This document shows positions 7,181-37,103 of a stretch of 64,000 nt of DNA, piece after piece. The stretch lies in contig CAWJRR010000002.1 in the NCBI GenBank assembly GCA_963845275.1, forward strand, positions 268,901-332,900, read 5' to 3'. A program made the translations under genes and the position numbers. The stretch comes from Candidatus Bathyarchaeota archaeon. GTDB lineage: Archaea; Thermoproteota; Bathyarchaeia; 40CM-2-53-6. The notes under the pieces were generated by a model. That model did no database searches and was not told the origin of the DNA. It saw only the letters and a list, made by a program, of their open reading frames with translations. Each line of letters begins with the position of its first letter. Positions within the stretch are counted from its first letter, which is position 1.

Positions 7181-8428
7181 TCACTCATACTTCAGTGCGT
7201 TTACAATATTCATCTTTGATGCCCGCCATGCAGGATATAATCCCGCGAGTATCGACATGCCGACTGGAAAGAGTAAGCTGAAGATTATGAGCGGTATTGA
7301 GAAAATTGGGGGAGATGGGGCAGTTGACGCACCGGGACCTCCCCCTCCCCCAAAACCTCTTCCTCCACCAAAAGAGAGTGAGCCTCCCATAGCATATGCC
7401 AAAATGAATCCTAACCCGGTTCCCAGGAGTCCGCCAACTACTCCAGTGATTGCCGCCTCTGTGAGGAACATACTCATGATTTGTGCTCCCTTGAATCCTA
7501 ACGCTTTCAGTATTCCAATCTCTCTTGTTCTTTCCATCACCGCTACATACATCGTGTTAGCGATTCCTATTGCCGCCACAAATAGTACTACGCTCCCAAC
7601 ACTGCCCAGAAAGATAGTGAGCTGGCTTGTTACAGCTGATATGCTGCTTGCGATTGACCCAGCGTTGATTATGTTAACTTGAGTGCCGTAGATGCTCTGA
7701 ATCGCGGTTTGAACCGCAGCCACGTTATCGGTTGAGTCAACAGCTATGTAGATTGACGAGAAGTACGGGGTCTTAAGAAGAATTTGTGCTGCCTGCAAAG
7801 AGACGAAAATGTCGTTGTCAACATTAGCGAATAATGCTGATCCGTAAGGAGCAATAATCCCTTTCACCAAGAAACTCAGACTCGTCTTGCTACTTCCAAT
7901 CACCATAGACACAGCTTGATTGACTCCAACCAGTTGAGAGCCTCCTGCAAGCACGGGAAAAGCGACGCCGTTTCCAATGACAGCTGAAGTAGGGTCTCCC
8001 GATACTGGGTAGGATCCTTCAGCAAGCGCTATTCCATGAAAAACACTAGGTAAGAGTGTCAGGTCTACTCCGAACAGTGATCCAGAGAGAGTTTGCCCCC
8101 CAACCGAAATAGAAACCGATTTAGTTTCAACAGGTATTGCGCTCACCACGTCTGGAATTCTACTGAGTATAGGTAGATCCAACGGGCTCAATTGATACGA
8201 TGAAGTTGAACCCGAAATGAAGTTAGTGCTTGCTGCTCTTACAATCAGCGTGTTCGCACCTATTTTAGCAATGTTTGCTTGAACTCCTGCGCTTAATCCA
8301 CTGGTGCTTGCGACCAAGGCAAGGATGATTGCTGAGCCGATCATGATACCCAAGATTGTAAGTGCGCTCCGAACTTTCCTGTCAAGTAGTGCCGTTGCTC
8401 CCAACTTGAGCAAATCGATTGTTCTCAT
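7181..8428 (-). CDS. ABC transporter permease, FtsX/MacB-type with a large extracytoplasmic loop
   Basis: 415 aa with an N-terminal TM, a long loop and a C-terminal 3-TM FtsX-like bundle (REIGILKALGFKGAQI). Adjacent to the ATPase. Confidence 0.85.
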   Translation of the reverse strand: MRTIDLLKLGATALLDRKVRSALTILGIMIGSAIILALVASTSGLSAGVQANIAKIGANTLIVRAASTNFISGSTSSYQLSPLDLPILSRIPDVVSAIPVETKSVSISVGGQTLSGSLFGVDLTLLPSVFHGIALAEGSYPVSGDPTSAVIGNGVAFPVLAGGSQLVGVNQAVSMVIGSSKTSLSFLVKGIIAPYGSALFANVDNDIFVSLQAAQILLKTPYFSSIYIAVDSTDNVAAVQTAIQSIYGTQVNIINAGSIASSISAVTSQLTIFLGSVGSVVLFVAAIGIANTMYVAVMERTREIGILKALGFKGAQIMSMFLTEAAITGVVGGLLGTGLGFILAYAMGGSLSFGGGRGFGGGGGPGASTAPSPPIFSIPLIIFSLLFPVGMSILAGLYPAWRASKMNIVNALKYE

Positions 8429-8439
8429 TCAGTTCACCT

Positions 8440-9324
8440 TTACGGATAACTTGCTCCGAAGAAGACGTTATAGAGACTGCGCAGAATTGTAATAACCTCT
8501 CCGAGCAAGCCAGTGGGGCCACGAGGACCACGTTGGGTGAGTATGGCACTTGCCTTCGAAATCTGAATTTGTGAGCTTGCTTGGCTAGTGAGCGGTATTC
8601 CTGGACGATTATTATCCGTGGCGGAGACTTTCACCGTGAGCGTATAGTTTCCATCTGGAACGTTCTGTTTGAATAGGACGAGCAGGCTAAACGGTCTAGG
8701 AATGTTCGGATCGATTTCTCCAATAAAGTAGCTATTAATGGACCCTGGGAGAAGAGCGTCAGATTCAACCGTAACATTTGCGTCGTAAGCCGCAAGGTTT
8801 CCTGCGTTAAGCAGGCTGCCTGAGATTGTTGCGTTACCTCCCGGTGCAACCACTGTAGGTGTGAGCAGGATACCGTATAGGACTAAGCTGATCCACGCAT
8901 TCACTGAGAATCCAATATTGTGAACTTCCTGCGTGTAAGAAACATCGCCTAATTGCTTGTAAGTTGCCGTAACCGTTCCGACCTGTGCTAAAGTGCCAAT
9001 AGCAGAGGTAGGTGCATACACTTCGAAACTGATTGTAACCGCTTGACCATATGCGATGGAATCATAATGCCAATGATTATCGCCGTAAGCTGTCAACGTG
9101 GTGGGCACTGAAACGGAAATGTCAACATCATAGATCGCTATGTATCCGCTATAATTGTTGAGTACGGAGATTGTGACTGTGTTGTTGAAGCCAGCGGTAA
9201 GACTGTTACCGTTAATTGATACGTTCAGGTGGGCTGATGATTGTCCTTCGACAACAGAGGTTTGAGATAAGAGCGAGATTAAGAGTACTGCAATGACGAG
9301 ATAGCTGTATCTATATTTGTTCAA
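8440..9324 (-). CDS. Secreted beta-rich protein (CARDB/S-layer-domain-like)
   Basis: The in-frame TTG at 9324 gives (M)NKYRYSYLVIAVLLISLLSQTSVVEG, which is signal-peptide-like. It overlaps the upstream gene's TGA by 4 nt. The rest is repetitive beta-strand-rich sequence with N-x-S/T sites. Confidence 0.6.
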   Translation of the reverse strand: MNKYRYSYLVIAVLLISLLSQTSVVEGQSSAHLNVSINGNSLTAGFNNTVTISVLNNYSGYIAIYDVDISVSVPTTLTAYGDNHWHYDSIAYGQAVTISFEVYAPTSAIGTLAQVGTVTATYKQLGDVSYTQEVHNIGFSVNAWISLVLYGILLTPTVVAPGGNATISGSLLNAGNLAAYDANVTVESDALLPGSINSYFIGEIDPNIPRPFSLLVLFKQNVPDGNYTLTVKVSATDNNRPGIPLTSQASSQIQISKASAILTQRGPRGPTGLLGEVITILRSLYNVFFGASYP

Positions 9325-10280
9325 ATTGTGCCTTCCTGGAGAGCTTTGATTCTTGCGTCTAACGTGGGTTGCTTGTCGAATACTCCAAACCATCGATGTC
9401 TGCCAGAGTGGAACAAGCACGCCATCCCAACTGATGTAGGCGGAGTGGCCACCTCATAGTGGGCTTCGCGTATCTTAGAAAGTGCTGACACTAGAGCGTT
9501 CGGTCCACCAACCAGCTTGGAGGCCGTGCTGTCCGCTAAGTGTTCACGAGATCTGTACACCGCAGGCTCTATCAAGTAACTAAGAGGACGTGAGAATAGG
9601 CCAACCTTCGCCATGGTGGCGAAGAATCGAAGAGTGAAATCTTTGTTCTTCAAATGTGATATCTCATGTGCAAGACACGCCTCAACCTCCGCGGGCCTCA
9701 ATGATTCCAGCAGCCCGACTGAGACTACAAGAACGAATCCCTGCTGTGATCGGGTTATGAACGCCCATGGGATCCCCGAATCTAAGAGGCTTACATGAGG
9801 CATCTGCACGCCCGCAGTCGCGGCCAGCTTCTTGACGATTCGTTGAACGTATGGTGGAGGGTCGAGAAACTGATATTGAGGGAAAAGTCGGGTCAACGGC
9901 ATACGAGATTTTCCAAATTCCACGTACGTTGCAACAGCAAACGCTGCTACAACGCCAGTTATTGCTAGACCTAGATTAACATCAAAGAAGATTGAGAAAA
10001 AATGACGGATGCCTTCAGAAACTGGGTCTGGGTGCATTAACTCCATATGCAATCCTATTACGATAAGTTGCAGGCTCTGATAGAACATTAGAGCTAAAAC
10101 GCAGAGAAGAGTTATTGATCTGCCTCGAAAGGATCGTTTGAAGGATACTGATAAAATTAGAGCCAATAGTGTAAGGATGATCAGAAGCGGCGAAAGAAAC
10201 CCAGCGAAGCCATGGGCAGTAACTGGCCCCAGAAACACCCAGGCTAGTAATATGAACAGCCTGGGGGAGTATTCGATCAT
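9321..10280 (-). CDS. Membrane M48-family zinc metalloprotease (BlaR1/HtpX-like sensor-protease)
   Basis: HExxH motif HEISHLKNKD follows four N-terminal TM segments. There is a 4-nt overlap with the upstream BlaI-like gene. Confidence 0.8.
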   Translation of the reverse strand: MIEYSPRLFILLAWVFLGPVTAHGFAGFLSPLLIILTLLALILSVSFKRSFRGRSITLLCVLALMFYQSLQLIVIGLHMELMHPDPVSEGIRHFFSIFFDVNLGLAITGVVAAFAVATYVEFGKSRMPLTRLFPQYQFLDPPPYVQRIVKKLAATAGVQMPHVSLLDSGIPWAFITRSQQGFVLVVSVGLLESLRPAEVEACLAHEISHLKNKDFTLRFFATMAKVGLFSRPLSYLIEPAVYRSREHLADSTASKLVGGPNALVSALSKIREAHYEVATPPTSVGMACLFHSGRHRWFGVFDKQPTLDARIKALQEGTI

Positions 10281-10705
10281 TCTTTCGCCTTATCTTTCAG
10301 TTTTTTGAGGTATTTCGAAATAACCCTTCGATCTTCTGGGCCGTCAGCCATCCTGTCGGTTAGATACGCGACGGTCACGTCATTGAAGCCTCTTAAAAGT
10401 GCTCCCATCACATTATGTACGACCACATGCTTGAACTGGTCCTCTGTGACTCGTGCCGAGTACACGTAGTGCGGGCCGCCCTCCTTAATCAGCTGCCTAG
10501 CAACAATACCCTTCCTGTATAATCTGTCCAAAATCGTAGCGACAGTCGTTACTGCAACAGGTCGGCTTTTTGATATCTTTCTCTGAAACTCTTTGACCGA
10601 GAGAGATTCATCCGTCTCCCAGAGCCGTTGAAGAACAGTTGCTTCAAGGTCACCTAGGGCGAAGCGTAAGTCTCGGTTGGTTGGGTGCAGAACTTGCAGT
10701 CTCAA
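10277..10705 (-). CDS. BlaI/MecI/CopY-family (penicillinase-repressor type) transcriptional regulator
   Basis: LGDLEATVLQRLWE...SVKEFQRKISKSRPVAVTTVATILDRLYRKGIVARQ matches the wHTH of this family. Start codon is TTG at 10705. Confidence 0.75.
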   Translation of the reverse strand: MRLQVLHPTNRDLRFALGDLEATVLQRLWETDESLSVKEFQRKISKSRPVAVTTVATILDRLYRKGIVARQLIKEGGPHYVYSARVTEDQFKHVVVHNVMGALLRGFNDVTVAYLTDRMADGPEDRRVISKYLKKLKDKAKE

Positions 10706-10721
10706 ACAGTGATTACCGCAG

Positions 10722-10752
10722 ACTACTGGCTGTAGTTAGGCTTATATAAATT
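10722..10752. promoter_or_regulatory. Dyad ACTAC-N5-GTAGT next to a TTATATAAA TATA-like box in the divergent promoter region
   Basis: The dyad is at 10722..10736 and the TATA-like box at 10742..10750. They lie 17-45 nt upstream of the BlaI-like start (10705) and ~40 nt upstream of the plus-strand ORF at 10788. Confidence 0.35.
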
Positions 10753-10787
10753 CGTCCGTAACTCCGAGCTGAACAGGAGCTAACACA

Positions 10788-11208
10788 ATGCCTCAGCCAC
10801 CTATCGTACTCCCGATTATAATCACTGGGTTGACATTAGGATCAATCTTAGCATCGCAAGCCAAGACGATTTCTAAGAAAAAGTTCGCCGGCATCTCATT
10901 ATTATCCGGTCTCCTGAACAGCGCCTACGCGTTTCTATTATACACATTAAGTCCACCTCCAACTTTCTCACGTGCAGGCTTCACGGGCTCTACAGGCTAC
11001 ACAGGCGCACAATTCAGAGATTCAAACAGGATCAGAAACTGGCTTCATCATCTCATCATTCATAACGGGCCTCATATTTTTCATAGCGGTTTGCGGAATC
11101 GCACTCGTATACGCGCGATTCCGAGGAAAGAAAGAAGATGAAGAAGACGAAGTTGAGGACGAAAAAGCGGTCGACGACGAAGACCTAGGAAAATTAGAAG
11201 ACACTTAA
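10788..11208 (+). CDS. Small membrane protein with an acidic C-terminal tail, split between two frames (10788..11141 and 10972..11208)
   Basis: The first frame encodes two TM segments. The second frame encodes a third TM (FIISSFITGLIFFIAVCGIALVY) plus a KKEDEEDEVEDE tail. The tail of frame 1 (RNRTRIRAIPRKERR) looks out of frame. Confidence 0.35.
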
Positions 11209-11225
11209 AGCACCTGGCTTTTTTA

Positions 11226-14200
11226 ATGTTGGGGCTAAGCACGCGCACAGTCAAGACACTTTTCGCATTTTTGCTACTGCTAACAATCCTGCTCCCAATT
11301 GGAGCTCAAAATGCGCACGCAAGCCCCGTAACCGTCTCGCCGGGAAAATCGGACCTAAACCTCGGCGCAGACTTTCCCACGTTCGCTTCAGTAAAACTGA
11401 GTTACCCAAACAGCAGCATTCTGACAAATAGTACAGGAGACCTACTCTTCACAGTAACACCAGACGCTAGTTGGTTAGTATTGCCTAATGGTACGCAAGT
11501 GAATTCGAACTAGCTTCCATCAGCATATATATTCCGCCAGATTTTTCAGGCCTGTCGATAAGTAAATTATGGACCAGTTTTTCAAACAACTATAATCATA
11601 ACAGTATCTCCGTATCGCGACAGTCATCATCTGATCAAATTGCGACCCAACTGGTGGAGAGTGCTTATACAAAATCTGACAATCCTCTGCTAAGTCGGCT
11701 CGACGCAATGTCAGCCTATGAGAATCTTCCAGTTGGTCAACCTCAATACATTAGACTCTTTCAAGTCACATCTCCTCTCACTGCTGGTCGATATTTTTTC
11801 AAGGCGTTTCATAATGTGGGGCAAGGTGGACAAATATCGATTGGGTCCGAAAATTTCCCAACGTTAGTTGTCAAAGCAAGTAAGGACCCAGCATACATCT
11901 CGGGCACACTCAGAAACTCGGGCTACCGTAATCCATCTAAGAGCTGGGCAGCCAATAATCTTGCCTCTTGGAACCGGCGCTCAAGTAGTAGCTACCGGTT
12001 TTGATTATCTCGGCAGACCAGTCTCAGCGCAGGCTTTCATCAATTCTACTATTACCCGGTGTTGCAACGCGACCGGATATCCTTTTCTGGTGCCCAGCGG
12101 GGCTTCTTATACACTGTTTGGCGTCGCTCCAGGAACATACAACATCACTGTATATGCGGCGGGTTTTGTTCCAGCAATAAATGGAGCGACCGAAGTGAGC
12201 GTCGCCGCTGCTCAATCTCTTGAAGGAGTGGACATTTACCTGACTGAAAGTGTTAACGTGACGGGAACCGTATTATCCGAAACTGCTGAGGGGGGCCTCA
12301 TTCCATGGGGAAATCTTACTGAGTATCAATCAGCAATGCAAGCAGCCCCCGGGGGATAGCACTTATACCAATTGCGCCCCGAGAGCAATTTCAATAAAAC
12401 TCCTAAATTTAGATGGAAGTGCCGTCGCAGCATCAACTCCAGCCCCATATCAAATACTGAACTTTCACAAATCCCGATTCTACATCGTTCGATTTTTCAA
12501 TTCAACATTACGTCGGATGGGACGGAAGAATACCACAAGACTATCGCAAATTACACCTCAGGACTAAGCTGGGGAGACTACTTACTGCAGGCATATGTCA
12601 CATCCTACGTTCAATTGGACCAAGTATATGTTCATGTTGCAAACGAAACTACAAGGACAGAATCAGTTATACCTCTTATTCGAACCGGGATTCTTCAACG
12701 TAACCGTGCACTTCAGAGATTACAATTCATCACTCGTCGATGATCCAGTTCCAGTTGGATATGGGGGCACTTTAACCGTCTCAGCATATGACCAGCAGGG
12801 GATTCTTAGAGCGCAGAACGTAACCTCCGTCCGTGCAGGGACAAACAAGACCGCTGTGGAATTGGGTGGATTCAGCAATTCAAGGAGCTTCGGGGAGTTT
12901 TCACTTTTTTCACAAAACTATGGACTTCTACCCGGAACTTACCATATCAAGGCCACCTTTACTTCCTCACCAAGTTTCGCTGGCTACGCGAATGTTGGGA
13001 TAAGAAATCTGTATTATCAACTCTGGGATGTCGAAGCTACAATTGGTCTTGGATTAGCGGATGTAGCAGTCGGCTTTCCAATGTTCAAGGGGGGAGGAAT
13101 ATTACTAACGTTACGATCCATCGACGATCAGTTACCGCCTTTGAATTATCCATGGGCGTATCCACGAGCTAATATTCAGATTCTGATACTCGATCCCTAT
13201 GGCAATGTGTATAATTCGAACGCAACACAACTGAACAATGCTACATTAATCACTCCCCCTCCTCTATGCGGCCTGCGGCAATCCCGCTAATTCGGCCTGT
13301 CTCAATGGCACTTTCACACTATTCTATTCAGGACTCTTGTCCAACGACTATAAATAGTGATTCGAACTTAGGGATATACTCAATCACAGATTTTGCATTT
13401 GCACGTCGTTTTGGGTGGAAATTCCGATGCGTCTATTTGGATGATTCTAAATCCAGTTATTGACTTGACAGTTGCTTTCAAGGATGAGGGACTTCTATCC
13501 GTCATCAATTCTACGCAGACCTTACGCTCAACCTATAAATAATTTAGATGCGACGCCTGCCCGCGTTGAAGTTTTTGATGACCTAGGGAATTTCGTAGCA
13601 GCAAATCAAACCTACATTTCCAACAATTCAACTGATCTTCCCCCGCCGCTGGGCAGCGGTGAACCTACTCGAGTTGCCCATTTTGTTTTAGCCGGGTTCA
13701 ATAGGAGACGAATCCGGGTCAGTATTCTGGTGACCCGAGATATATTTGGTCAGGATTTTATGATACGACTGATGGGGTTAGCCAGAATGCAGGAGGCTTA
13801 TTTCTATATCCTTGGGAAAATAACGAAACAAGAACGTTTACTGTCAGGCTGTGGGTGGATGGTTATTATCAATTCGAGCAGTGGCATGTCATTGTTCCGG
13901 CGAGGGACGAGAACTGGGATGGCAGCCAGAAGACTGGGACCAGCAGTTATTTCAATGGTCGAATCCCTTAATCGCGCTTCGAGAATCAGCGGGACAGTGG
14001 TTGGACCTGACTTTTTTGATAGAGCTCGTCCTCTTTCGTGGGCAACCATAACGTCTACAGCCGGCAGATTACACGCTCTCAGGCATCATAGATGTTCAGC
14101 CGGGTAACTATACAACGTCAAGCCTCGACGGGTTCTTCCAAGTGTGGGTTCCGGAAGGTAACTACGGAATGGGCGTGTCGCTCAATGGATATTCCTCATA

Positions 14201-27925: not shown

Positions 27926-28003
27926 ATGTCGCGTGTGGCCCTTTACTTACAGGATAAGCCAACGGTTTTATCCTTTAGCTACACGGCGAGGCAGAACGAG
28001 TGA
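27926..28003 (+). other. Displaced 5' fragment of the LLM oxidoreductase gene (start codon plus 11 codons), fused to 14 element-derived codons
   Basis: ATG TCG CGT GTG GCC CTT TAC TTA CAG GAT AAG encodes [11 protein letters not shown], identical from RVALYLQDK to residues 9-17 of ORF 36057..37103. The fragment ORF ends at TGA 28001..28003, overlapping the integrase GTG (28000). Confidence 0.7.
27935..27959 (+). repeat. attL: left copy of the 25-bp perfect direct repeat GTGGCCCTTTACTTACAGGATAAGC
   Basis: Exact match to 36084..36108. The flanking bases differ on both sides. Confidence 0.9.
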
Positions 28004-29001
28004 ACGAGAAGCCTCGCATTAAGAAAACCTTTGACTGGGTTCAAAGGGAACCACTCATCAAGCCTTGGCATCGTAAGCTATCCTCAGGCTCTGAGAGAAC
28101 TGCAATTCATTACGCCTACAATCTGCAAAGACTGTTAGAGGAAAGAAAGCAGACACCAGAGCAGTTCCTTGAATACTGCAAATCAAAATACACTTCACCG
28201 AAAGCTACCGGCGAACTATGGGTTGAACTCAGGGACCAGGCTTACGAGTTCAAGCCTTCACAGGTGAAGATGATTGTCAAAGCGTTCCGCAGTTTCCTGA
28301 CGCATCACGGCGTATTCCTCCCAGCCGAAAGACTACCAACACCTAAACCAAACAACAAGAAAGAACTGCCTTATGATGAACTCAAAAAGATAGTAGCCCT
28401 GTGCCCTGAACCGTACAGAACAATCTTCACAATATTCACTTATGCACCGATGGGTGAGGTTTCATTCATTCAATGGAACAACAGCGATGACATGGCTCAG
28501 GACGTGCAGAGGCAGCTATCCAATAGGAAGGATTACGTGAAGGTTGTTCACCCACCAAGGAAGAATGCTCGTTTCCGCTTCTACTCGTTGATTCCCAAGA
28601 CAGTGATTCAGGATTACCTGGACCGTGGAGGAATCTTGCCTTTCAGGAATAGCAGAGGCTACCTAGTCAAAGACTACAATCTGCAGAAGGAGTGGAGAAG
28701 CATCAGGGAGAACCGAGCAGGATACAAGAAACACAAGGGCGTAGGTGTCCACGAAATTCGTGATGCATGGTTCACCTGGGCTGGTACACCTAGCGGTGGA
28801 AGACTGGATTGGGATTACAGGAAGTTTGCAATAGGCCACTCGCAATTCTCAGAACAGGAATACAACAAATTGTGGGAGCGTGAAGGAGAGATGGCGGACC
28901 AGCTAAGAGGAGCTTGGGCTGCAAGGGATTCAGACCCTGAGCTGGCGAAGAAGATTACTGAAATTGAGGAGTCCACGAAAGCATACTTGTATCTGGTCTG
29001 A
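28000..29001 (+). CDS. Tyrosine recombinase-like integrase
   Basis: The C-terminal half shows an HxxR box (GVHEIRDAWFTW), a GH (FAIGHS) and a candidate catalytic Tyr (SEQEYNKLW). There is an N-terminal SAM-like helical region. The first catalytic Arg was not confidently located. Confidence 0.6.
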   Translation: MNEKPRIKKTFDWVQREPLIKPWHRKLSSGSERTAIHYAYNLQRLLEERKQTPEQFLEYCKSKYTSPKATGELWVELRDQAYEFKPSQVKMIVKAFRSFLTHHGVFLPAERLPTPKPNNKKELPYDELKKIVALCPEPYRTIFTIFTYAPMGEVSFIQWNNSDDMAQDVQRQLSNRKDYVKVVHPPRKNARFRFYSLIPKTVIQDYLDRGGILPFRNSRGYLVKDYNLQKEWRSIRENRAGYKKHKGVGVHEIRDAWFTWAGTPSGGRLDWDYRKFAIGHSQFSEQEYNKLWEREGEMADQLRGAWAARDSDPELAKKITEIEESTKAYLYLV

Positions 29002-29770: not shown

Positions 29771-29837
29771 GAGCGTTCATTGCAATAGAATAGAAAAAAG
29801 GAGGGAGATTGGGAGTTGATGCCGTGTTTCGCTGATT

Positions 29838-30167
29838 TTACTTATTGCAAAAGTCGCCTTGGAAGTCAGAGACCTCGAAACTGTGCGGCGTAATGCCATC
29901 GCCACAGCCGCAAGCTGCGTCAGTACCTATCTTGCCTGAAAAACAGCCGTGGTGTGGTGGGTCGTGGCTTCCGCCATTTCCTCCGTCATGCACAAAGGGG
30001 CAGTTATTCGCAGTATAGTTCGGGTTGCTTGGTGACATTTGAGCGCAAGTGTTCGTGTTCCCGCCCGTACTTTGCGTAGGCTGCACTATGGGATTAGCGT
30101 AAGCGATACCGACAAGCGTTGAGGTTGCCAACATCAATCCCAAGAGGATTGAGAGAAGTGCTTTCAC
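29838..30167 (-). CDS. Small secreted Cys/Gly/His-rich protein (cassette 1)
   Basis: GTG start with GGAG 7 nt upstream. The leader MKALLSILLGLMLATSTLVGIAYANPIVQPTQS is paralogous to that of 30400..30624. The mature part has 7 Cys and a PPHHG motif. Confidence 0.65.
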   Translation of the reverse strand: MKALLSILLGLMLATSTLVGIAYANPIVQPTQSTGGNTNTCAQMSPSNPNYTANNCPFVHDGGNGGSHDPPHHGCFSGKIGTDAACGCGDGITPHSFEVSDFQGDFCNK

Positions 30168-30195
30168 CGAATATCTCCGCCGCCGAGTAATACAT

Positions 30196-30212
30196 ACGAC
30201 ATATATTTAGTT
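30196..30212 (-). promoter_or_regulatory. TATA-like promoter element of cassette 1 (minus-strand CTAAATATATG)
   Basis: It lies ~35 nt upstream of the GTG at 30167. The whole upstream block (TAAATATATGTCGTATGTATTACTC...GGAG) is conserved upstream of cassette 2. Confidence 0.4.
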
Positions 30213-30399
30213 TTCACCCACCATAATTCATTGTGAGTCGTCGAAAACACATATGCGTACTACCGCTATCGAGAGGCCCAGATTCTGAGATTCTAGCCTC
30301 TAATTGCGTCCTCGTTGGAGTCCACTTGTATTTTACTCACGAGTAGAACGAAGAGGAAGGGGGGTTGATGTCGTCTATTGTCAACTTTGATAGGCTTGC

Positions 30400-30624
30400 T
30401 CAGTCGTGGTGAGGGCCGTTTCTTGGAGGTTCACCAGGGCCACATGCGGTATAATAGTACGGCGGATAATAGTACGGCGGATATGGCGGATAAGGCGGAC
30501 AATAGTAGGGCGGATATGGCAGAGATTGCGCAGGTTGCATTGTGGGAGTAGCGTAAGCGATACCAACTAGCGTTGAGGTTACAAAAATCAATCCCAGTAG
30601 GATTGAGAAAAGTGCTGTCTTCAC
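30400..30624 (-). CDS. Small secreted Pro/Tyr-rich peptide (cassette 2)
   Basis: The homologous GTG start at 30624 gives (M)KTALFSILLGLIFVTSTLVGIAYATPTMQPAQS. The core is LPYPPYYCPPYPPYPPYYYPPYYYTACGPGEPPRNGPHHD. The track ORF extends to 30660. Confidence 0.6.
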   Translation of the reverse strand: MKTALFSILLGLIFVTSTLVGIAYATPTMQPAQSLPYPPYYCPPYPPYPPYYYPPYYYTACGPGEPPRNGPHHD

Positions 30625-30653
30625 TAAATATGCCTCCTCCATGACTAGTACAT

Positions 30654-30670
30654 ACGGCATATATTAGGCA
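30654..30670 (-). promoter_or_regulatory. TATA-like promoter element of cassette 2 (minus-strand CCTAATATATG)
   Basis: Same spacing (~35 nt) to the GTG at 30624 as in cassette 1. CTAATATATGCCGTATGTACTAGTC aligns with the cassette-1 upstream block. Confidence 0.4.
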
Positions 30671-30910
30671 TGTCGCATGTTACATCAATGTCACACGCAT
30701 GATACATATCTATACCTACAGGCGTGAATAGGTTCTGCCAATCATCCAGTCAACCCTACTTTCTCTTTCTGAAAAGTCTGACCCGTCCCTATTGCGGAGC
30801 AAAGGTTAGCGCTGAGAAATCAACCTCGTACTCGGAGAGTCGCATTCCCAAAAGAGGAACCTCACGTTTCTAATCGATTTGCTTGACCATTTCGTGTTGC
30901 CGTTACGTGA

Positions 30911-31099
30911 TTGTCGACTGCCGAGCTTTTGCATTCCATGAACTGTCCAAAATGTCATGAACCACAGCTTTCACTCCTAGGCCGTAGCTTACGATTCATG
31001 AATGAAGGAACGGAAGTGGTCTTGGATTACCTATGTCCAAGATGCCAGACACGCTGGCAACGCTGGGGAGAAACTGGACTCAAGATTGAAGAAGTCTAG
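30911..31099 (+). CDS. Small zinc-ribbon protein
   Basis: Two CxxC pairs: CPKCHEPQ ... CPRCQTRW. 62 aa. An alternative ATG start lies at 30938. Confidence 0.5.
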   Translation: MSTAELLHSMNCPKCHEPQLSLLGRSLRFMNEGTEVVLDYLCPRCQTRWQRWGETGLKIEEV

Positions 31100-36056: not shown

Positions 36057-37103
36057 TTGTGTAAAGTGGTAAACAGGCAAAGAGTGGCCCTTTACTTACA
36101 GGATAAGCATCAGGTTCGCGAAGAGCTGGAGTTTGTTCAATACGCTGAAAAGAAAGGGTTTGAGGCAATCTGGCACGCTGAATCACGATTGGCTAGAGAT
36201 GCTATCACACCCCTCGCCGCAATGGCCGTGGTCACTGAAAGGATCAAACTAGGAACTGGAGTTATCAACAACTGGACGAGAAATGTTGGACTCTGCGCTG
36301 CTACCTTTCTTACATTAGATGAACTCTCCGGCGGCCGGACTCTACTTGGCGTGGGAGCGTGGTGGGATCCACTTGCATGGAAGGTTGGAATTGAGCGAAA
36401 GAAACCGATCAAAGCCATGCGCGAGTATTGCACTGTCCTTCAGCGTCTCTTCAGGATGGAGAACGTAACTTTCGATGGTGAGTTCGTAAAAGTGCATGAC
36501 ATTCGACTCGATGTCGTGTATGGTGATCCAAATTCTCCACGGAAGATTCCAATTTACATTGGTGCGACTGGATGGGATATGATCGAGCTTACCGGCGAGA
36601 TCGCAGACGGGCTGCTACTGAACTACCTCGTATCGCCAGAATATAACAAGACAGCTCTAGATCACCTTAAAGACGGAGCTAAGAAAAGAAATCGCAATTG
36701 GGAAAAGATAGACCGTCCACAACTCATCGTGTGTTCGCTCGACGAAGATGCTGACAGGGCGTTAGACGACGCACGGCCGCTAGTGGCGCAATATCTTGGT
36801 CAGCAACCTCACATCGCGAAAGCTAGCGGAGTTAAAGAGAATCTGATTGAAGAGGTTAAGTTGGCGCTTGGCGGTTGGCCGGCGAAGCCGGGTGGGTTAG
36901 AGAAGGCCCAACTGCTCATAGATGACAAGTTAGTTAGACTCATAACTGCTAGTGGCACGGCGGATGATTGTCTGAAGAAAGTTGAGGAGTACGAGAATAC
37001 TGGATGCACGTGTCCTATTCTATATCCACTTGGAGACGATGTCCGTGCGATGATTGATGCATTTCAAGTTGAACCTACACGCCCCGGTCCATTGGTTGCT
37101 TAA
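36057..37103 (+). CDS. LLM-class (luciferase-like) flavin/F420-dependent oxidoreductase, with its 5' end replaced by element-derived sequence
   Basis: [40 protein letters not shown] is the typical LLM N-terminal beta1-alpha1 pattern. The only alternative starts available now are TTG 36057, GTG 36066 and GTG 36084. Confidence 0.8.
36084..36108 (+). repeat. attR: right copy of the 25-bp perfect direct repeat GTGGCCCTTTACTTACAGGATAAGC
   Basis: Exact match to 27935..27959. It lies inside codons 10-18 of ORF 36057..37103. Confidence 0.9.

Follow-up and report, generated by a model that had tools for sequence, protein, structure and literature searches.

Genes A and B of an integrated element in a Bathyarchaeia genome: probable members of a lineage-restricted family of small exported proteins

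The 64,000-nucleotide stretch considered here (Candidatus Bathyarchaeota archaeon, GenBank assembly GCA_963845275.1, contig CAWJRR010000002.1, positions 268,901 to 332,900 of the forward strand), referred to below as the window, contains an integrated element of 8.1 kb that carries two adjacent genes on the minus strand, designated A and B. The two are probably tandem paralogs within one lineage-restricted and uncharacterised family of small exported proteins that belongs to a single genus of the Bathyarchaeia. Members of this class are abundant, little is known of what they secrete or of how they interact with their neighbours, and to our knowledge none is available in pure culture. The genes and the blocks associated with them are as follows.

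29838..30167, minus strand: gene A, a long form of 109 amino acids with a GTG start
30096..30167, minus strand: predicted signal peptide of A, 24 amino acids (M/V-K and an uncharged hydrophobic core, with A-Y-A before N-P at the end)
30191..30209, minus strand: promoter block of A, TATA-like TAAATATA and then TGTCGTATGTA
29793..29825, minus strand: 3′ block of A, ACGGCATCAACTCCC followed by a C-rich stretch and a run of six T
30400..30624, minus strand: gene B, a short form of 74 amino acids with a GTG start
30550..30624, minus strand: predicted signal peptide of B, 25 amino acids
30649..30667, minus strand: promoter block of B, CTAATATATGCCGTATGTA
30360..30374, minus strand: 3′ block of B, ACGACATCAACCCCC
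30446..30499, minus strand: coding sequence for the Pro/Tyr tract of B, built of in-frame tandem repeats with 15-nt and 9-nt periods

The preliminary description of these genes had drawn attention to three shared blocks, namely a promoter region, a leader and a 3′ flank, and all three were found where it had placed them. When the DNA of A and B is aligned, conservation extends from the TATA-like sequence across the GGAG motif and the start codon and lasts until the leader ends, then collapses, and briefly recovers at the 3′ block. A repeat finder, which is independent of this alignment, also picks out the leader, as a direct repeat of 94 nt with 85% identity (30072-30165 versus 30526-30619). 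Upstream of the start, A has GGAG at 30175-30178, 7 nt 5′ of its GTG, and B has GGAGG at about 30633-30640. A search of both strands of the 2.26-Mb genome finds just three copies each of the promoter motif TATATGYCRTATGTA and of the 3′ motif ACGRCATCAACYCCC, at A, at B and at a further family gene on contig C12, and because these genome-wide copies sit only at three family genes the shared blocks are regarded as real and specific rather than due to chance. The 3′ block of the A type is kept 3′ of six full-length long-form genes in an alignment, and it may represent the end of the transcript. Each gene would then form a transcription unit of its own, made up of a TATA-like block, a short 5′ untranslated region with GGAG, usually a GTG start, and a 3′ block that in the long forms would end in a conserved T run. 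Across the family, GTG is the start codon in 24 of 27 distinct coding sequences, with GGAG about 7-8 nt 5′ of it, an unusually consistent use of a codon other than ATG.

A family of small proteins in one genus

A word-indexed protein search recovered 14 homologues of A, and a profile built from A, B and these homologues matched 36 clusters at E <= 0.001 in a hidden Markov model scan of 1.84 billion representative proteins. Another 22 loci were confirmed as family members in JGI metagenome contigs. Among genomes of the genus, 4 of 23 contain strong matches to the family profile, and one more (G022) contains a weak match that is confined to the leader. The profile found nothing in 378 other genomes sampled from the class, covering 130 other genera, and no relatives were encountered in the viral contigs of IMG/VR. 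A and B have no match in Pfam, PHROGs or NCBIfam, the family profile has none among PDB sequences at E <= 5, and no account of such an archaeal family was found in the literature. The lineage-restricted family is new, then, and the general kind to which it belongs, the small Sec-dependent secreted protein, is familiar.

Members begin with a leader of the consensus M/V-K-x-L-L-S-I-L-L-G-L-M-L-L-T-S-(T)-L-V-G-I-S/A-Y-A, and this is followed in all of them by a linker, T/N-P-x-x-Q-P-x-Q. The mature part is divergent but can still be recognised as homologous, and in long forms it has the order Cys1...NPNY...Cys2, H-x-G-G-N...D-P-P-x-H, Cys3, (R/K)-I-G-P-D, and Cys-x-Cys or Cys-Cys, and its best-conserved stretch lies near the C-terminus, where G-I-T-P-H-S-x-E-V-S-D-I-Q-x-D precedes the last cysteine. 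Mature parts are acidic, with much Gly, Asn, Pro and His, and they have His and Cys residues that are conserved. Their number of cysteines is even in 39 of 40 members (2, 4, 6, 8 or 10, most commonly 6). The mature part of A comprises 85 amino acids and carries the motifs NPNY, HDGGNGG, DPPHH-G-C, IGTD and GITPHSFEVSD; it has six cysteines, not the seven that had at first been counted in its core. A PHH(G/D) element, which had been singled out as common to A and B, is indeed present, and it is better read as the family motif D-P-P-x-H that stands directly before Cys3. In one locus (L070, 1726-3217), three long forms are arranged in tandem about 600 bp apart, directly 3′ of a gene for a zinc-ribbon membrane protein, and here too the leaders are conserved and the cores have diverged.

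Rates of change can be gauged from a comparison of the genome that contains the window (G000) with a second genome of the genus (G002). Long forms are 87-89% identical between the two and their flanks 92-94% identical, and for B the corresponding values are 81% and 90-92%, so that the family diverges about twice as fast as its genomic surroundings.

Short forms and the origin of B

The long form can be viewed as two modules. The first, or N-module, would consist of Cys1...NPNY...Cys2 together with H-x-G-G-N...D-P-P-x-H, and the second, or C-module, of Cys3 to Cys6 with G-I-T-P-H-S-x-E-V-S-D-I-Q-x-D. By its layout and motifs, B appears to be a short form of the same family that retains the N-module only, rather than the bearer of a foreign core. 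Its mature part has 49 amino acids and two cysteines and ends in ...GPHHD-TGA, with the stop aligned to the codon for Cys3 of the long forms. Short forms of like layout are found in G002, G004 and G008 (two in each) and in an ENA contig (L030), in addition to B itself in G000, and the homologue in L030 is 95% identical to B. The shared layout comprises the leader, Q-P-x-Q-S, an aromatic and Pro-rich stretch with two cysteines, a tail that contains Pro and His, and the stop.

Several details tie this layout to the N-module of the long forms. A and B both have Cys1 eight residues after Q-S, hence in register, and Cys2 follows at a similar distance. The tail of the short forms in G004, G-D-H-G-G-P-P-N-G-H-P, resembles the segment H-D-G-G-N-G-G-S-H-D-P-P-H-H of A. 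At the module boundary, the coding sequence in L030 ends ...CACCACGGCTGA where A reads CACCACGGCTGT, that is, a TGA stop stands in place of the Cys3 codon. Of the genes whose ends were inspected, the seven complete short forms all have TGA as their stop and the six long forms have TAA or TAG. What is left of the 3′ block of the long forms can still be recognised 3′ of B. Independent truncations have occurred at the same boundary (P0035/L080 and L079), and these end just before Cys3 with TAA. The view that the two cores are completely different and unrelated is for these reasons not upheld: Cys1 and Cys2 are in register, the His motif is kept, and the TGA of B corresponds to the Cys3 codon of A. 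What had been described as a Pro/Tyr-rich core does have that composition, which is the product of the in-frame 15-nt and 9-nt tandem repeats.

These relationships suggest a possible course of events. A change from TGY to TGA at the Cys3 codon would have come first. Most of the C-module DNA would then have been lost, with the 3′ block alone remaining, and the N-module would have been remodelled later by in-frame growth of repeats that encode PPY and YYYPP. If so, a gene for a short secreted peptide can arise from a longer one by a single stop at a Cys codon and subsequent repeat expansion.

Some results weigh against this reading of the family as a whole. A profile-profile comparison of the mature parts of short and long forms aligned the first 23 columns only, with a probability of 66%, so that past Cys1 the proposed homology between the core of B and the N-module of A rests on position, on motifs and on the codon match at the stop. 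Nor is a defined disulfide fold borne out by AlphaFold2, which gave no confident fold for full-length A (14 sequences, predicted local distance difference test score 51.1) or for its mature part (24 sequences, 48.4). The mature parts of short forms from G000 and G002 have a ratio of nonsynonymous to synonymous divergence (dN/dS) of about 1, a value that is also compatible with relaxed constraint.

That last value bears on a different account of B, in which it is a non-functional remnant. Here a nonsense mutation and a deletion would have killed a long form, and the Pro/Tyr tract would be no more than neutral repeat slippage in a decaying open reading frame (ORF). The TGA at the Cys3 codon and the 3′ remnant that is still in place fit such an origin, as does the core dN/dS, and clear pseudogenes of the family do exist, among them a frameshifted copy on C12 and a long-form fragment in G002 (L034). 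Decay is nevertheless an unlikely explanation of B, as short forms occur in four genomes and in metagenomes with the ORF, the leader, the promoter block and both cysteines intact, and the ORFs persist where synonymous divergence (dS) is saturated. In one pair of short forms (L042 versus L043) the dN/dS of the mature part is 0.21. Two short forms in G002 (L035 versus L036) differ by one in-frame repeat unit, so that repeat changes keep the frame, and B is retained in an otherwise decayed element of G002 as well as in the L030 variant.

The leader and alternative readings of the genes

The suggestion that both genes encode small proteins with a signal-peptide-like leader is borne out by the sequence features of the leader, which were compiled for 59 distinct members. 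Position 2 is Lys in 56 of the 59 and Lys or Arg in 58, as is usual for the n-region of a Sec signal, and the core that follows is uncharged in 57 and has a mean Kyte-Doolittle value of 2.31, as is usual for the h-region. AlphaFold2 predicts a helix for residues 2-22 of A. At the inferred cut site, position -3 is S, A, T or V, position -2 is near-invariantly Y and position -1 is Ala in 59/59, which agrees with the AxA rule; these counts are partly circular, since the pattern used to extract the leaders had pre-set -1 to A/T, -2 to Y/H/D and -3 to A/V/S/T/P/G. Position +1 is T, N, A or S and never Pro, and +2 is Pro in 55 of 59. The leader contains neither a twin-arginine motif nor a lipobox Cys, and its n-region is just Met/Val-Lys. 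Taken together, these features point to a Sec signal that would be cut by signal peptidase I after S/A-Y-A. The circularity just mentioned tells against so specific an assignment, as does the fact that the cleavage is deduced from sequence rules and not from a trained predictor.

It had also been proposed that conservation is much stronger in the leader than in the mature part, and this is confirmed. Mean pairwise identity is 0.68 for the leader and 0.34 for the mature part, and 778 of 780 pairs have the higher value in the leader. In all of 12 phylogenetically disjoint pairs, nonsynonymous divergence (dN) of the mature part exceeds that of the signal peptide. By contrast, dS is lower in the signal peptide in only 8 of these pairs, and leader dS reaches 0.9-1.7 in distant ones. 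Because leader dS is not consistently below that of the mature part, the conservation is attributed to purifying selection on the protein; constraint at the nucleotide level, or general gene conversion, is not supported by a dS that is lower in only 8/12 pairs. Within the element, the leaders of A and B differ by a dS of 0.28, far below that of their cores, a value that could reflect local conversion or a leader subtype common to both genes.

Strong conservation of the leader next to diverged cores had led to the idea of a cassette, in which a constant promoter and leader are recombined onto unrelated cores and dedicated enzymes or exporters mature the products, much as in bacteriocins or in ribosomally synthesised and post-translationally modified peptides (RiPPs). 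Recombination around the shared block is suggested by L034, a long-form gene from which promoter, leader and N-terminal coding sequence are deleted, and one protein of G022 has a similar leader on an unrelated core. However, a profile of the leader alone, run over the 23 genomes of the genus, gave matches of 31-58 bits to family members only, so that every strong match (>= 31 bits) stands on one homologous core family or on its truncations. The next match is the G022 protein, at 24.9 bits and without the promoter block, which is at most a distant or convergent case. A word search with residues 1-40 returned only five known members, within the limited reach of a word index. Profile and word searches have thus recovered a single Cys-rich family and its truncated short forms in place of a reusable leader with swapped cores. 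Nor do the gene neighbourhoods speak for maturation enzymes, as no maturation enzyme, ABC or other exporter, or immunity-like gene is conserved beside members in about 35 loci; a RiPP or bacteriocin cluster is for that reason left without positive evidence. The features of the leader are moreover of the Sec and signal peptidase I type, not of the double-glycine or RiPP recognition type, and the cassette is considered quite improbable. The G022 protein itself (L046, 1501-1902, in G022:C126) has 133 amino acids, a GTG start, a leader that ends ...V-F-G-V-S-Y-A followed by A-P, and a core that is not Cys-rich.

It is very unlikely that the N-terminus escapes signal peptidase I and serves as a type IV pilin-like (class III) signal or as a permanent anchor, conserved through the packing of its helix. 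Type IV pilins do pair a conserved hydrophobic N-terminus with a variable C-terminal part that contains disulfides, and the Lys-Ala found at positions 2-3 in 33 of the 59 members resembles the [KR][GA] prepilin site. Unprocessed Sec signals can also act as anchors (PMC3387779). Against this, the prepilin site is not conserved (position 3 is T, I, V, K, Y, N or S in the other 26), S/A-Y-A followed by T-P is near-invariant at the end of the hydrophobic core, and no genes for pilus assembly are conserved nearby.

On another reading the TGA of the short forms would specify selenocysteine where long forms have Cys3, or would be subject to readthrough, and B-type proteins would be longer than annotated. 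This is hardly credible and was rejected: seven of seven complete short forms do end in TGA exactly at the long-form Cys, the first 36 nt after it are conserved among the four closest short forms, and similarity searches ran through it, but PSTK was not found above the cut-off in G000, G002, G004 or G008, SepSecS gave only weak partial matches like those in control genomes that lack selenocysteine, SelD exceeded the cut-off only in G008, the element has no selenocysteine insertion sequence (SECIS) or other Rfam match, the frames after the TGA are unrelated among distant short forms (L024 has a stop three codons on), and the sole tRNA-SeC call by aragorn needs a 195-nt intron and is not trusted. 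The SelD gene of G008 (G008:C5:2361-3278) is full-length, scores 353 bits, contains one in-frame TGA and is the only one in the four genomes checked; it could reflect a use of selenium other than selenocysteine, or a contaminant contig.

Possible roles and genomic setting

If A and B are members of one exported family, as the preceding sections suggest, residues 1-23/25 would act as a Sec-type signal, and signal peptidase I would cut after S/A-Y-A to free a protein that starts with T/N-P-x-x-Q-P-x-Q. Because the number of cysteines is almost always even, and because VKOR is a single-copy gene in five genomes, disulfide bonds probably form outside the cell. VKOR was single-copy in 5/5 genomes checked, one of which (G014) has no detected family member, and in G000 and G002 some 2 kb separate it from the chromosomal locus of the family; its presence shows only that the organism has machinery for extracytoplasmic disulfides. 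Genes of the family move and turn over rapidly: copies are found in tandem arrays and integrated elements as well as at a conserved locus of the chromosome, and several are pseudogenes.

The best guess as to function is a fast-evolving extracellular factor for binding or antagonism, and an alternative is that the conserved His and Cys residues bind metal. The conserved signal, the modular and fast-evolving core, tandem duplication, pseudogenes and carriage on mobile elements would, by analogy, make secreted antagonism or recognition likelier than a housekeeping role. It counts against any such assignment that neither a partner gene nor homology backs it, and it remains a guess. Rather unlikely is the notion of an archaeal counterpart of venom and antimicrobial-peptide families, in which exported disulfide-stabilised mini-proteins specific to the Bathyarchaeia, with a strongly conserved signal peptide and a fast-diverging core, are spread by integrative elements and serve as extracellular weapons or recognition molecules, that is, as new archaeocins. 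Were this true, the core would be one that can be shortened, lengthened by repeat slippage or duplicated, and the actors would be found among uncultured archaea of soil and peat. The finding is modest; as a well-defined and readily recognised set of exported mini-proteins, partly carried on an integrating element, the family does offer a handle on the secretion signals of the class, on extracellular disulfide chemistry by way of VKOR, and on possible factors of competition.

Known systems offer analogies of several kinds. Sec-dependent class II bacteriocins are small secreted antimicrobial proteins of bacteria. In Archaea, the sulfolobicins SulA and SulB are likewise small, secreted by way of Sec and antimicrobial (PMC3387779). 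Like both groups, the family consists of small proteins with a Sec signal of the signal peptidase I type and no modification cluster, varies among strains and is sometimes carried on mobile elements; unlike them, it has no sequence similarity to either, no partner or immunity gene, and mature parts that are acidic instead of cationic. These proteins may be its nearest functional analogues. Halocin C8 is a Cys-rich peptide. It comprises 76 amino acids, and like other halocins it is cut from a larger prepro-protein with a twin-arginine (Tat) signal, of which, for C8, the N-terminal part gives immunity (PMC3387779). The family shares with halocin C8 and the microhalocins the status of a small archaeal extracellular peptide of similar size, but differs in its plain signal of the Sec-like type, which lacks a twin-arginine motif, and in having neither a pro-region nor homology to them.

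In evolutionary terms the nearest analogue may be the pattern seen in conotoxin superfamilies, where a conserved signal is joined to a fast-diverging, disulfide-rich mature peptide and genes are duplicated into tandem arrays (PMC6178336, PMC12686989). Conotoxins are eukaryotic and have a propeptide, so that the likeness is one of analogy only, and in the archaeal family the leader shows no special conservation at synonymous sites and the mature dN/dS is mostly below 1. Archaeal type IV pilin-like proteins likewise join a hydrophobic N-terminus that is conserved to a C-terminal part that varies and contains cysteines (PMC3387779); the family differs in keeping a signal peptidase I site in place of the prepilin motif, and in having no assembly genes nearby. 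It is a member of none of these systems, as the tests for homology, a Tat signal, partner genes, a prepilin site and selenocysteine machinery all turned out negative.

The element in which A and B reside, and the features that delimit it, are listed below.

27935..27959, plus strand: left copy of the perfect 25-bp direct repeat at the two boundaries of the 8.1-kb element
36084..36108, plus strand: right copy of the 25-bp direct repeat
28000..29001, plus strand: tyrosine-recombinase-like gene at the start of the element, with HxxR, GH and Y motifs
30911..31099, plus strand: gene for a 62-amino-acid zinc-ribbon protein, divergent from B

The right repeat lies within the 5′ end of a gene for a luciferase-like monooxygenase (36057-37103), into which the element has inserted. 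The single database match of the recombinase-like gene is to XerA and is weak (E 0.018). The element carries three zinc-ribbon membrane proteins, and the gene for the 62-amino-acid protein also adjoins element-borne family genes in G002 (L031, L035).

G002 is syntenic on both sides of the element site (90-92% identity) and contains a decayed relative at the same integration site (L035, G002:C1:91500-111499, about 7365-13005). What is left there comprises codons 1-70 of the recombinase, a small zinc-ribbon gene and a B-type gene that is 81% identical to B, with no A-type gene. The long-form fragment of G002 noted above (L034, G002:C2, about 9916-10210) lacks the equivalent of window positions 30008-30217, which covers the promoter, the leader and the N-terminal coding sequence. 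On the 6216-bp ENA contig (L030, 1083-4151), a variant of the element has the 95%-identical B homologue beside two proteins with a Peptidase_S74 domain, of a kind resembling tail fibres or chaperones, and this pair occupies the place that zinc-ribbon membrane proteins have in the window.

The third family copy of G000 lies at C12:157400-157703 (L006 1501-1813; L037 about 9900-10213) and is a long form, intact but for a frameshift of 2 nt after Cys2; it is either a recent pseudogene or an assembly error. Genes at this chromosomal locus are ordered VKOR, MsrA, a membrane protein, a small zinc-ribbon protein and the family gene, and the arrangement is syntenic in G002, in G008 and in a JGI contig. 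All-against-all clustering of ORFs from about 35 loci identified no gene that is universally conserved beside family members. Neighbours that can be annotated include VKOR, MsrA, zinc-ribbon proteins and metabolic genes, and zinc-ribbon membrane proteins recur near several family copies, not all. Just 3′ of the chromosomal copy on C12 (L037, 10444-11127, minus strand) is a gene for a membrane protein of 227 amino acids with an HxxxxDH motif and a His-rich loop, which has a weak match to a nickel/cobalt efflux family (E 1.5e-4).

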